Source of the DNA: Eledone cirrhosa
Lineage: Eukaryota
Reading direction: 5' to 3'
Assembly: GCA_964016885.1 (NCBI GenBank)
Contig: OZ024742.1
Coordinates: 305,846,001-305,910,000, forward strand
DNA: 64,000 nucleotides
The position numbers and the translations under genes were made by a program. Shown in pieces: positions 8,611 to 54,684 of this stretch; position 1 is the stretch's first letter; each line of letters starts with the position of its first letter. The notes under the pieces are model-generated. The model was not told where the DNA came from, did no database searches, and saw only the letters and a list, made by a program, of their open reading frames with translations.

Positions 8611-8812
8611 TCAATAAGTTATTTGTCTCTAATATAGTAAGATATATTAATGAAAAGATAAATATCATCTCATAGAAGCAATTAATAGATATATAGTTTA
8701 AGCCAACATTGAGATTTTGGCTTAAACTATATATAGTTTAATTGCTTCTCTGGGTTGATATTTATCTTTTCATTGATATGTTTGACTATATTAGAAACAA
8801 ATAACTTACTGA
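8611..8812. repeat. Long imperfect inverted repeat (~95-bp arms)
   Basis: tcaataagttatttgtctctaatatag... versus ...ctatattagaaacaaataacttactga; apex near 8707-8716. Confidence 0.9.
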
Positions 8813-9220
8813 ATGTTATTTTTCTACTTACTACTTGATTGTTGAGTAGATTCAGACGGGTTTTGTGTGATGTATCTAGGATCATTCAAAGCCTGTCGTA
8901 TTCTCCTTATGTATATAGATATATGTTCATTTAGTCGTTGAAGGACGTACGCTGTCGGGTGTACCATGCTATTTCGACAACGATATGGCCAGTGTGCTAT
9001 CTAGTCAATATATTCCCTACTTCCAAATAATTTCCCCTTAAAATCGGAATATTCTTCTATTGGGTGTCTAAATCTATCTAGATAATGAGTATAATTTCTT
9101 AGTTACATAACCTGCATTTGGAAACATAATACGAGTGAAACTGACATTTTTTTGTGTAAATCATATACCACCAATTGAGATTTGGGGTTAAGTATTATAT
9201 ATATATATATATATATATAC

Positions 9221-9393
9221 ATATAAACAAGGTTTAGTAAATAATGAAAAAGTTTCAAAATAAATTTTAAAAAATTGACTTTACCTACTATAGTTACCTT
9301 TACCGATCGGTGAAGGTAACTATAGTAGGGTAAAGTCAATTTTTTAAAATTTATTTTGAAACTTTTTCATTATTTACTAAACCTTGTTTATAT
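9221..9393. repeat. Near-perfect palindrome (~85-bp arms)
   Basis: Centred on accgatcggt (9302-9311); abuts (TA)n. Confidence 0.95.
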
Positions 9394-11549
9394 TTGTTCT
9401 GGCTCGTTAATTATTAACCCGCCATTGAACCACACTGGCATTTGGTTGGACAATACATGCGTACCTTGGCGCCTTGTGCGTGAAGGAACGTATTTCCTAT
9501 ATATATACATATATATATATTGAGAGAGAGAGAGAGAGAGAGAGAGAGAGAGAGAGAGAGTGAGAGAGAGTGATAGAGAGAGAGAGAGAGAGAGAGAGAG
9601 AGCGAGAGAGAGAGAGAGAGAGAGAGAGAGAGAGAGAGAGAGATTTATATGTATATATATATTCAAATGTATAAATAATTTCCTTACTGAAAACTTTTAT
9701 TTCAAATTTAACTTGAAATGCCTTCATAGAAACATTAAAGATGAACATTAAAATATCGCTACTATAATAACAAATTGTAAAAGAAATAGTTAGACATTTT
9801 AAATAGTTGGCCAAAATAATTGTAACATCATATAAATATTTATACATCTATATATGTTTGTCTTACATCTATATATGTTTGTCTGTGTATGTTTGTGCAC
9901 GTGAATTTCTGAGTGTGTGCGTATGTTTATGCGTGTGTATGTGTTTGTGTGCACGAATGTGTGTGTGTGTACGTCTGTGTGTTTGTGTGCGTGTGTGTGT
10001 GTGCAAATCAATTTTAGTTCATACATGTTTGTATACCCGATAGAAAATTTCTATTTATTTCATCAGTAGTCAGACGACAGAAATCTCATTCTACCCTGTT
10101 TCATATATTTCTGATTGCAAGCTGTCCAGTCTTTCTTTCAATCCCTTATTAAATTAGTTTTATCTCAGCGCATTCCTCACCTTATTTAACTACTAATAAG
10201 TGCAGATAATTTGGAGGTCTTAGAAGATTTTCTTCGCTCAACACATCAATATGTCTGAAAGGTCAAACAACTTCAGTTGCGATATTTCTCTCGGGCCTTT
10301 ATCTTCGTTTCCTTGAAACAGTGAAGATTATTTGATGAGAAATGCTGTGCAAGGTCATGTGTACTACTGATAAAAGTTGCATAAATCAAATACACATTGG
10401 AATTTCATAGAAATAGAAGAACCGACACAGTGCATTACGTCATTTTGACACTTTATCAATTTGTTGCTTATAGAAATTAGATACACGTGTCCTTTAATTG
10501 AAATGAAAAGGAAATTTTGAATGAGACACGTCAATATAATTTCTCATCTGCAGAATACATATAGGGTAAAATTCATTTGCACATGTTACCTAGTAGTAAC
10601 TGACCTCACATACAAGATGATTAGACACGAGTTTGCCTCAACAGAGCCTGCACGGAAATCATATATAGTTATCAGTTGGCTTGAATCATTGTGATGCATC
10701 TTGATTAGAGCACTGTAGTTGAGAATGATTGTATTCTCCTATTTCAGAGAGAAATACAGCTTTCTCTTGTTTTCGACAGAAGACAAAAATGGGCTAGTGT
10801 GGAGTCTTAAACAAAGAGACTTTCTCGCACGTGGATTTCATGTTATTGAAAATGATTTATGTCATGTTTCATGAAATGGAAATAATTTGCTTGGTTGTTG
10901 TATAACATCTTACACTAATAATGTGTATTTCATATACACTAAGATTTTACATTATGAGGTAGAGCTGCAAAACCATCAGAGGTTATTTCCTTAAATGAAA
11001 TAATTTATCAAGTCAGTCTTTTATCATAAGTTAATGTCTGCGAGAGTAGGCTCCGAGTTTGAGAAAACTGTTATCGTCAATTATGACCGACCGCAATATT
11101 TTATTTAATAACAACGAAAATGATTACATGGGAAATTTGTAACTTTGGCAATGCATTACATACGCCAAGGTTCAGAAATTTTGGTGGGAGGGGACATTTG
11201 ATTATATCGACCCTAGTACTTGGCCTGTACAAAGTTGACCTAGAGGGAATTAGAAATGCAATAGCCGGAATAAATAGAGTGAAGCATTTCTTCAAACGCC
11301 TTGAGGAATCTGCCAATTGCCCGCCATATTGATAATCAAATATAAAACAATAATTTCTTTTATTATTGCCAAAAGGACATTCCAAGGATAAATTACAAAA
11401 ACCATGTTCAATTACAAAAAATCTTGTACAAGAAAATATTTATAAAAAAGACAATGGAATATATATATGAACAATCTTATTCAAAAATGATACAACCACC
11501 TGGTCAAGGCGAGGAAAATCACATATTAAATGAAATTTCAAGGGGAGGA

Positions 11550-12100
11550 GCTCTCTCTTAACAATGTACTTCGGCTTACTGAATTATTTTGGTAGAAGAA
11601 TTATTCAGTCAGATTTGTTAAGATATCCTTAATCTCCTCCCTTCAGGAACGCCCTCAGTATGCTAGGTACATTTTCACACATTCTTAGCATTAATCTTCA
11701 ATAGGATGAAAGGCTTTCTTTCTGTCAGTAATTTAATTTGGATCAACAACTTATCCGAGACCTCAATTGGGTCAAGGATACTAGTTGCAGATATACACAT
11801 TTAATAAAAACCGACTGCACCTACTCACCGTCAAGAATTGCATTCAGTTGCCACAGCCTGGATGCATGCCTGAACATAATCACCATAACTATATGTGACT
11901 GGTGTCTGTCGTATATATTCCTTCCAATGGTTAGATGTGTTCATCCCAGATGCAGCAAGGGGCAACATAAGTCGATCAGACTCTAATAGGTTACGGAGGA
12001 GGTTAAGACGTTCACTATCTTAGCTCGAGTTTTCAGAGACAGCTTTCTCTTAGCCCATTTCTCAATGAGATTAGTAAATGTGCAAGTACCATTGTCCTAT
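11550..12100 (-). mobile_element. Decayed L1/Tx1-type LINE ORF2 fragments
   Basis: Minus-strand WAKRKLSLKTRAKIVNVLTSSVTY (W..R.LSL.GR-type motif) and RLWQLNAILD (WKLN-type motif). Confidence 0.5.
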
Positions 12101-12486
12101 TCTCCATCCACTTGGCGGTGAAAATAACCAAATAATCCAGACCTGTAAACAGGACTTTCAGTAAAGCGACAAACATTGTACAACATGAAACTGTCATTCA
12201 AGTTCCGATTTACATTCTTGCCGATTTTATGAGTGGAATTTACCTATAATCAGTGACCTGAATACCGTAGTGTTTTCCCAGAATACTAACACAAGCCTTG
12301 AGTATACAGAAACTGTATGGGAGCTCGTCAGTACCTCAAAGTCCCTGCCTGGCCATACCCCACATCAGGCTATATCTCCAAGAAAATTATCTTAAGGCAC
12401 ATGTGTCTTAGAAACATTTAGCCACTTTAACTTCATTTTAATGCGTAGGCTATATTATTAATCGATCAAATGGATAATCATAATAT

Positions 12487-53109: not shown

Positions 53110-53800
53110 ATATATATATATATATTGTTAAATTATATGCCTATAAAGAAAACATTATATTATTGTAACATTTATATTGTTTGTGCAAATTAACCGGAGA
53201 TTATCTATTATATAATTATATAGTTTATTATATATTTTATGCTTACTTTTAATCATTTATTCTTCATTTTATACTGTAAATATTATATGTATTATATTTT
53301 CAATTTTATTTTCATTTGTATTTTTATTTTTATTTTAATTTAATTTAATTTTATTTTATTTTATTTTATTTTATTATTACTATTATTATTTATATTTAAA
53401 CTCTTAATAAGGGTTAGTTTGTGCTTCTATTGATGGAAATGTGTATTGATATATATGTATATATGTGTACATATGTATATATATATATATATGTATATTG
53501 GGCCTTTTAACATTATTATTATTATCATCATTATTAATTATATTATATTATATTATATTATATTATATTATATTATATTATATTATATATAGTACAATAA
53601 TTCCCGCTCTATATCACCACCTCTGTTTTAGCTCTAGTTTTTGCATTGGAAATGTTACTTACTTCCTTAGCAATTTTCACTTGATAATTTTTTAATTGAT
53701 AATTTTTACCCGTTTATTTTCCTATGATTTAATCTATGTACACTTCATATTCTTCTGAGTTTTCGGCTTGTATTGGCTGATAGTGCTTCTTATAGCTTTA

Positions 53801-53846
53801 ATTGCCCTGATGAGTCCTTAATAGGACGAAACATTGTTGGCTAATA
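53801..53846 (+). ncRNA. Minimal type I hammerhead ribozyme
   Basis: gcc-CTGATGA-GTCC ttaata GGAC-GAAAC att GTT-ggc; about 150 bp upstream of (TA)n. Confidence 0.88.
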
Positions 53847-54091
53847 AAGACTTTTGATGTATTGAAGGATTCTTTGGGTTTTTTTCATAATTCTTCGGCT
53901 CTGTTTAATTACATTGAGCTATACCTTTACTGTCATTTCTATAATACGATGAGGGTGTTTAACTCCAACACACTCTAGTATTTCAATTCTTATATATATA
54001 TATATATATATATATATATATATATATATATATATATATATATATATATATATATATATATATATATATATGTGTGTGTATATATATATAT

Positions 54092-54470
54092 ATTTATTCA
54101 TTGAACCTTGTTTAACTTTTAAATATATATATATTTAAAACTTAAACAAGGTTCAATGAATAAATCAAAGAATGAGTTTTACAATAGATTGGAAGCACTC
54201 GACTGTTATGGTTTTCCAGAGTTATTAATATTGATTCAAAATATTAACAAAATAGATAGATAGTCTTGTGATCAAGTATATTTTTTTATACATATTTCAG
54301 AGGTACTGAGTTAAGTTCAACAGTCTTAACCATCTACGATGTCAGGGTATGTCATCATCTTATTTTATCTGATGAGGACGTACCTTTGAAGTTAACTCAA
54401 TACCTCTGAAATATGTATAATAAAATATACTTGATCACAAGAATATCTATTTTGTTAAGATTTTGAATTA
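54092..54470. repeat. Element with two inverted repeats (54092-54165 and 54234-54468)
   Basis: The first is centred on a (TA)n; the second has ~85-bp arms with CTGATGAG (54369-54376) in its loop. Confidence 0.85.
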
Positions 54471-54684
54471 ATATATATATATATATATATATATATATAT
54501 ATATATATATATAGGAACCAGTAAGACCCCGACAGCTGAGCTCAAGCCGTTTCGACGGCTAATTCTGGTCTTACTGGTTCCTATTACCCACTCTACTACC
54601 TCAAGTATTGAGTACTTTGGTGCGTTATGGTCCACCTGGTTCCTTACCACATTTCCTTCGTTATATATATATATATATATATTA

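Follow-up and report, generated by a model that had tools for sequence, protein, structure and literature searches.

The long inverted repeats in a stretch of 64,000 nucleotides of Eledone cirrhosa DNA (hereafter the window) are probably head-to-head stubs of Penelope-like elements (PLEs) inserted in (TA)n, with an apex that in most cases lies about 30 nt behind a TATA motif and likely marks the 5' end of a short RNA. The insertion layout is an inverted, 5'-truncated copy with a tail on one side only, placed in (TA)n. An earlier note on this DNA had listed eight such repeats, and all of them proved to be real, to within a few bases; in three, the arms are 87-100% identical. Its view that they derive from PLE pLTRs, target (TA)n and are abundant is likewise supported. 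The repeats had been described as mostly unrelated in sequence, which needs some correction, since those at 20032 and 54511 belong to one family. The same note placed the apices on hammerhead ribozymes, and seven of the eight window junctions do touch one, but there is no genome-wide lock on the cut site. The features of the window are collected in Table 1.

Table 1. Hairpin insertions, ribozymes and longer copies in the window
Feature	Position	Strand	Details
Family B hairpin (old, diverged family)	8612..8811	+	Apex 8710-8713, ~60 nt downstream of the parent's ribozyme cut
Family B, next tandem unit	8893..9208	+	Decayed ribozyme region, 73% identity to parent L151
Family C insertion (retrozyme-like, 482-483-nt tandem)	9221..9500	+	Hairpin 9224-9390; zero loop at stem III palindrome, 9306/9307; ribozyme 5' half absent
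Family D insertion	19133..19314	+	Hairpin 19133-19251; inverted arm enters stem II; sense arm begins at GAAA core, 12-13 nt before cut
Family N insertion (absent from the earlier note)	19553..19702	-	Hairpin 19646-19695; tail-bearing arm begins exactly at first base after predicted cut
Family E insertion	19742..19910	-	Tail arm (minus) starts 3 nt before cut; tail-less arm (plus) at 19844, the predicted transcription start
Complete type I hammerhead, family E	19850..19888	+	Predicted cut after 19888
Family A insertion	19955..20143	-	77-nt tail (19955-20034) and hairpin 20035-20140, whose 1-nt loop (20087) sits 4-6 nt downstream of the predicted start; each strand carries the 3' half of the ribozyme (plus 20100-20122, minus 20074-20052)
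Family F insertion (3' end of GIY-YIG-coding PLE)	44682..45022	+	Short arm ends 2 nt after cut; decayed hammerhead 44825-44853 inside 52-nt loop
Family E copy, second subfamily	50806..50969	-	TATA box (50969) and complete hammerhead (50933-50895) retained
Family G insertion	54127..54474	-	Arm with tail begins inside stem II, at -38; arm without tail extends to -100
Complete hammerhead, family G	54369-54419	+	Taken as partial in the earlier note
Second family A insertion	54511..54661	+	Inverted arm stops no more than a few bases from the predicted start; sense piece opens 2 nt past the predicted cut (54568)
Longer PLE copy, family P	54670..56933	-	Parent-type copy retaining its putative promoter and its ribozyme; CX4CxxC linker and GIY-YIG in a broken ORF end (56933-56109); TATA motif at 54926 with an initiator-like A near 54896; hammerhead 54854-54825 is a U3-A8 variant

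The hammerhead survey covered 1.25 Mb, consisting of the window and 119 evenly spaced 10-kb stretches. An Rfam scan of the window returned mostly microsatellite matches (among the matches listed, hammerheads occurred only at 52833 and 53801, both below the gathering score), and ribozymes were therefore sought with a custom descriptor, an earlier and stricter version of which had missed the family E ribozyme. This descriptor gave 73 matches, compared with 1 in a block-shuffled control, placing hammerhead motifs far above chance. A set of 162 hairpins from 12 families was mapped onto longer parent copies; the family B hairpin of the window, left unpaired by the mapping script, was placed by hand, and BLAST ends at palindromes are uncertain by a few bases. 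Homology searches are biased towards the youngest, best-matching copies. Searches of the species' own genome with the family A and N tails gave no matches, the words probably being too common, and these two families were sampled from random and flanking DNA instead. Forty near-identical palindromes had raised the idea that the family A hairpin is a fixed master copy; it was rejected because the query had selected the apex and unselected copies vary, and 17 apex-selected family A loci are excluded from the counts. Clusters of solo copies at B +160 and G +144 were simple-repeat artefacts of the reference sequences and were ignored. TA-flanked hairpins numbered 98 in 1.19 Mb, 39 of them assigned to mapped families, and extrapolation gives a load of roughly 100,000-250,000 per genome.

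Palindromes are a known source of assembly error, and fold-back chimeras could in principle imitate such structures. The chance that this explains the hairpins is negligible: their arms differ by substitutions (median identity 96%) and end at family-specific fixed points next to (TA)n. In addition, a strand-switch joint of family G, the only family checked in this way, is present in raw Illumina reads of three samples, at the A of TCACT (L263:1362); these reduced-representation data probably reflect one locus.

The affiliation of the elements is indicated by their ribozymes and, in some families, by adjacent coding sequence. Parent copies of all 12 mapped families contain a hammerhead core, in some cases a variant one. 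The type I core CUGANGA...GAAA...UH with its three stems is complete in the parents of B, C, D and F, and within the window for E and G; the cores of A and P have U3-A8 or C3-A8, and that of family N has A at position 4. The U3-A8 variant is already known, according to the available text of PMC4209133. Folding with no constraints gave stems I and II in F and P, though not in every fold. A link to EN+ PLEs is provided by the GIY-YIG ORF directly upstream of family F in L347 and further F loci, and likewise in P and Q, with Pfam GIY-YIG E-values of about 1e-8 for the three families and a weak RVT_1 match in Q (8e-4, below cut-off). The 3' ends of these ORFs share with Neptune/Nematis-type PLEs a CX2-5CxxC linker before the C-terminal GIY-YIG, as defined in the accessible part of PMC8557442. 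Within 1.3-1.5 kb upstream of long copies of A, B, C, D, E, G and N, no contiguous ORF was found; these families may lack autonomy, or their 3' UTRs may be long. Family C has a tandem period of 482-483 nt in 3/3 loci checked, each unit with a type I hammerhead. In its tandem units, type I hammerhead and palindromic stem III it resembles animal non-LTR retrozymes (10.64898/2026.07.22.740005), but its copies integrate as two-armed PLE-type stubs. A MITE or fold-back DNA transposon was rejected, as the junction varies from copy to copy and the tail of one arm lies outside the repeat.

The main evidence for a transcription start at the apex is a sharp 5' stop shared between copies. In 90 of 123 hairpins from seven families, compared with 28.9 expected, the 5' end of the longer arm falls in the interval -6..+8 around an initiator-like A. 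In six of the eight families examined, this stop is 29-33 nt behind a TATA motif (chance 4e-7); the sequence at the stop is initiator-like, with predicted starts at TCACT in G, AGCTTC or AGATTC in E, CAGTT in F, AGATG in P, AGATC in Q and AGTCC in A. A CCAAT box between -61 and -100 is present in 8/16 parent copies. Non-inverted truncated copies begin at the same stop as the hairpin arms. Relative to the predicted cut, the stop is found at -41, -45, -46, -72, -72, -74 and -115 in seven families. A defined start is lacking in families D, M, B and C, whose break points are broad or different. In A, E, F, G and N the starts were assigned with the apices already in view, while those of P, Q and the second E subfamily were predictions; among held-out copies, picked by their 3' part only, the longer arm ended at the stop in 20/24 (second E subfamily) and 5/11 (Q). 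Judged from these promoter-like motifs, the stop would correspond to a cap site. The available text of two studies notes a TATA box and TCACT initiator in a rotifer pLTR (Craig et al. 2021, PMC8557442; Arkhipova et al. 2013, PMC3846280), and the only mapped Penelope promoter, that of D. virilis, is TATA-less according to the accessible portion of PMC2377424.

A sharp stop could also result from stalling of reverse transcriptase at an RNA structure or a protein-bound site, the TATA spacing being secondary. Families N and K would fit such a process, as they have a sharp stop with no TATA box at -30, and the stop is found at the base of stem I in E and N, within the long stem II of family A and, in family F, within a small hairpin. 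However, these structural contexts vary while the distance to TATA stays at 29-33 nt in six families. Ends also accumulate at the site and immediately beyond it but are scarce immediately before it, as run-off from an RNA end predicts. Stalling is accordingly an unlikely origin of the stop.

The earlier note had proposed that the ribozyme cut, or snap-back at ribozyme stems, sets the inversion point, and many of its local observations hold. Comparison with longer parent copies recovers the whole ribozyme it saw at 19850; arms do begin near the cleavage site at 19837 and 54568, the loop at 44825 contains a decayed hammerhead, and position 20087 does fall in the long stem II of a family A copy from which the ribozyme 5' half is missing. 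Other readings require revision. The ribozyme at 54369, taken as partial, is complete. What was read as a decayed one at 19179 proves to be the stem II 3' strand in reverse complement; the junction at this site nevertheless lies inside a ribozyme. The apex at 9306, described as a stem II hairpin, is a stem III palindrome, and that at 8712 lies off the ribozyme altogether.

Four window junctions have an end at 0, +2, +2 or -3 from the cut, family E stubs at L239, L240 and L243 begin at it, one raw-read locus ends 2 nt before the family G cut, and 20/162 hairpins have an end in -11..+2. As a general rule, nevertheless, the ribozyme route is not supported outside the window, where only 6/154 hairpins end within 4 nt of the cut, compared with 4/8 mapped junctions inside it (Fisher p=5e-4, post hoc). 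Pooled ends near the cut show no excess (14/46 vs 10.4 expected, p=0.14), nor do those of held-out copies (2/13 vs 2.6 expected). Most junctions of F, G, P, Q and K are located upstream of the ribozyme, at distances from tens of bases to >100 nt. Ends between -3 and -11 require uncut RNA, and family A stubs are devoid of the 5' half of the core. As the main route, ribozyme action is thus largely refuted and very improbable. Where the hammerhead is located at the stop site, 81/82 junctions overlap it, whereas only 10/43 touch the ribozyme in families with TATA and initiator far upstream; the stop overlaps the hammerhead only where the latter sits at the start. A minor route via the cut or via the palindrome of stem III is possible, given the outlying window count and family C, where 5/7 junctions terminate inside stem III, 4-11 nt short of the cut. 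The earlier note also regarded the hairpins as potential ADAR or siRNA substrates; polarised G.T mismatches, taken as A-to-G marks, were found in 0/9 window hairpins and in 1/103 sampled ones (uncorrected p=0.016).

The manner in which the two arms arise is reflected in their asymmetry. Many apices are 0-8-nt loops at short palindromes, which would be compatible with self-priming, in which a single cDNA or antisense transcript snaps back and is copied, the tail then being trimmed on one side; such a process has been proposed for rotifer Penelopes from palindromic junctions, as described in the available text of PMC3846280. Where the 5' ends differ by at least 15 nt, the tail arm is longer in 22 hairpins, but the tail-less arm extends further 5' in 29 of these 51, a class that a single cDNA copying back cannot yield. 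Loops of 40-100+ nt carry unpaired element sequence in either orientation. Self-priming is therefore unlikely. Since either arm may be the longer, the data point rather to two cDNAs, each primed at the target, that were linked where the RNA has its 5' end. Mirror-image 1-nt loops occur in a 10:9 ratio, and the junctions comprise 71 with microhomology, 70 with extra bases and 21 blunt. At the opposite end, families have two fixed 3' ends each (for example A +19/+96, G +54/+154, D +37/+100, N +28/+114).

Under the start-site model, the pLTR promoter would produce RNAs of 150-300 nt, and the element's enzyme would nick both strands of the (TA)n target. Each nicked end would then prime its own cDNA, one from an internal start site and the other from the end of the tail. 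Both cDNAs would run to the RNA 5' end or stall sooner, with short palindromes, microhomology or a handful of extra bases then linking their 3' ends. A ribozyme would be expected to occupy the apex only if its family carries it at the RNA start or spanning that start, and the 4/8 window junctions at the cut would be left to a side route.

Several known systems share parts of this scheme. In L1 twin priming, cDNA is primed from both strands of the target and microhomology links the two products, creating an inversion; double priming of this kind is proposed here too, but the L1 pieces copy different parts of the RNA, while those described here overlap and form a hairpin. Canonical EN+ PLEs, as far as the available text of PMC8557442 and PMC3846280 describes them, likewise insert as a 5'-truncated copy and an adjacent inverted copy with a one-sided tail, a palindromic head-to-head junction, a pLTR hammerhead and (TA)n targets. 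They differ from the present elements, in which stubs of 150-350 nt dominate, tails measure ~40-110 nt rather than 30-40, and the junction was measured to track TATA+30 across families. For the anole PLE PAc, the accessible part of an in vitro study reports that both target strands are cut and extended, that two reverse-transcription start sites bound the tail and that ribozyme cleavage is unneeded (Frangieh et al. 2024, PMC11167929); that part addresses 3' starts and contains no map of the inverted-copy 5' junction. The formation of inverted PLE ends is called an open question in the available text of PMC8557442, and a search of openly accessible main texts found no paper tying the inverted junction to a transcription start or a ribozyme cut.

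A junction that tracks the start accounts for apices that seem to sit on ribozymes in some families, and an apex on a ribozyme should not be read as ribozyme function. In a broader interpretation, offered tentatively and somewhat short of probable, PLE terminal repeats would be TATA-driven mini-genes whose short capped RNAs are mass-retroposed by double priming. Symmetric hairpins would then be fossil maps of transcript 5' ends, a minority of +1 junctions would represent cleaved RNA copied in the germ line, and transcribable hairpins would number on the order of 100,000 or more. Where transcribed, hairpins of this density represent a large potential pool of dsRNA.

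All eight inverted repeats listed in the earlier note are present in the window, and they represent seven families of Penelope-like elements (PLEs). The host genome is 3.0 Gb and rich in microsatellites; a random sample of 119 evenly spaced 10-kb stretches contained 233 hairpins with a median arm of 63 nt, 98 of them bearing (TA)n at an outer end; part of the 233 is noise from simple repeats. With a hammerhead descriptor, 73 matches were obtained in these stretches and the window together, while shuffled DNA gave 1. Hairpins and hammerheads are thus both real and common, and their co-occurrence requires a test at the level of families.

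The elements are of a known kind. Longer parent copies were located through searches of the same genome with the 3' parts of the families and in the random sample. Insertions usually read (TA)n, tail-less inverted arm, junction, tailed sense arm, (TA)n, the layout of inverted truncated copy and one-sided tail described for known PLEs (PMC8557442, PMC3846280). Two 3' ends are constant within each family (for example A +19/+96, G +54/+154 and D +37/+100 from the predicted hammerhead cut). Families F, P and Q correspond to 3' ORF ends that encode a CX4CxxC linker and a GIY-YIG domain, the Neptune/Nematis signature given in PMC8557442. The 482-483-nt tandems of family C resemble animal retrozymes (10.64898/2026.07.22.740005). 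No linked ORF was found in the examined flanks of A, B, C, D, E, G and N. Locus L084 carries 11 tandem 310-nt units with one hammerhead per unit, a retrozyme-like arrangement.

Features of the window. Arm 5' ends are counted from the predicted cut, with the base that follows it as 0.
Feature	Position	Arm 5' ends	Remark
Family A	20032	-37/-35	junction 20087
Family A	54511	about -41/+2	junction 54568
Family B	8611		turn at about +60, away from its ribozyme
Family C	9221	-11/-11	centre within stem III palindrome
Family D	19133	-38/-12	
Family E	19813	-45/-3	
Family F	44685	-54/+2	
Family G	54234	-100/-38	
Family N hairpin	19646-19695	-7/0	absent from the earlier list
Family N hammerhead-shaped element	19553-19702		core position 4 is A, not U; also L055
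Family P, broken copy	54670-56933		
Variant-core hammerheads (P, Q, A)	54854-54825 (-)		U3-A8 or mismatched C3-A8, missed by standard descriptors; also L121, L050, L181, L275
Five PLE stubs (Q, D, N, E, A) and other short inserts	18895-20171		1.3 kb; stubs (short two-armed insertions) stacked into successive (TA)n runs; Q stub begins about 3 nt past its predicted start
Tail-to-tail hairpin	54094-54163		perfect, opposite in polarity to head-to-head junctions; last 30 nt of G tail, short (TA) run, same 30 nt inverted
Additional hammerhead families	52340-53110, 40729, 50219, 53807, 42383		52851 family is a partial tandem
Inverted repeat	21068-21247		36-nt termini around 108 nt, no (TA)n flanks; probably a MITE-like DNA element of another kind
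Inverted repeat	39338-39812		degenerate 104-nt arms, no (TA)n flanks; probably likewise MITE-like
Two adjoining open frames	60671-61966 (-)		258 and 172 aa; resemble a decayed transposase-type gene
Open frame	33880-34383 (+)		167 aa; by eye like part of a LINE reverse transcriptase

The earlier note proposed that ribozyme cleavage or ribozyme stems fix the inversion point. All collected copies of 12 families were mapped onto real parent copies, duplicate loci and 17 apex-selected family A loci being removed before counting; 192 inverted junctions were retained, with an arm overlap of at least 15 nt in 162. Of the 8 window junctions, 4 had an end no more than 4 nt from the cut, versus 6 of 154 others (Fisher p=5e-4, post hoc). 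The cut-site cases already recognised (E, -3; A at 54568, +2) are correct, and the window holds two more, at 44803 and 19667. With both arms and solo copies pooled, 46 ends lay between -17 and +13, and 14 of these were no more than 3 nt from the cut (10.4 expected, p=0.14); in held-out copies 2 of 13 ends fell within 4 nt (2.6 expected). Given 6/154 outside the window and no pooled excess, the inversion point is not determined mainly by the cut, and the proposed lock is not a general rule. In favour of the cut are family E stubs beginning at the cut (L239, L240, L243), 5 of 7 family C junctions inside stem III, and an end in -11..+2 in 20 of 162 hairpins. In A, E and N, whose longer arm stops in or beside the ribozyme, 81 of 82 hairpins have a junction that overlaps it; in F, G, P, Q and K, where the stop site lies far upstream, 10 of 43 do. 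Some earlier ribozyme readings need correction: three (8712, 9306, 19179) are wrong in detail, and the hammerhead at 54369, read as partial, is complete.

The longer arm stops sharply at a family-specific point: -41 (A), -45 (E), -46 (N), -72 (F, P), -74 (Q) or -115 (G). It ends within -6..+8 of that point in 90 of 123 hairpins (28.9 expected). Every stop point is an initiator-like A, and a TATA motif starts 29-33 nt upstream in six of eight examined families (chance 4e-7), being absent in N and K. Of 16 parent copies, 8 have CCAAT boxes in the range -61 to -100. Since the sites of A, E, F, G and N were recognised only after the apices had been seen, held-out copies, chosen by 3' sequence only (39/40 search matches and 20 stretches), were tested. 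In 20 of 24 inverted copies of a second E subfamily, and in 5 of 11 of Q, the long arm ended where predicted. Raw Illumina reads from three samples contain a strand-switch joint at 1362/1367 of the G parent, so such junctions exist outside the assembly; this joint probably reflects one locus, and its position 1362 coincides with the A of TCACT. For a rotifer, a TATA box and a TCACT initiator have been noted in the pLTR, the PLE terminal repeat (PMC3846280); the D. virilis promoter also lies in the pLTR but has no TATA box (PMC2377424). The apex site would correspond to a capped RNA start. Stem II of the family A ribozyme itself contains that family's TATA box and predicted start; family N stops sharply at a TTAGT word. 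No paper in the literature searched connected the junction with either the start site or the cut.

A hairpin could arise from one cDNA folding back on itself. Among hairpins with 5' ends at least 15 nt apart, 22 have the tail arm as the longer one and 29 the tail-less arm. A single fold-back cannot yield a tailed arm that stops short of its partner at the 5' end. Such arms could come from two cDNAs, one per target strand, each primed from one of two start sites. Junctions comprise 71 with microhomology, 70 with extra bases and 21 blunt, and 1-nt loops occur in mirror-image forms 10:9 (apex-selected loci). This picture agrees with an anole PLE reported in vitro to cut and extend both strands, to start at two sites flanking the tail, and to insert equally well when its ribozyme is dead (PMC11167929). 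The ribozymes are predicted to have poor activity and to act as dimers (PMC4209133). In family A, half of the ribozyme core is missing from the stubs.

No DNA trace of editing was seen in the window's nine hairpins, and a polarised mismatch pattern occurred in 1 of 103 sampled hairpins. In that hairpin, L061:1591-1836, one strand carries 7 G.T and 0 A.C mismatches, a possible trace of A-to-I editing (uncorrected p=0.016). Transcribed hairpin copies would form duplexes, because median arm identity is 96%. For the position of the apex, a testable start-site rule replaces the ribozyme lock, which is not general.
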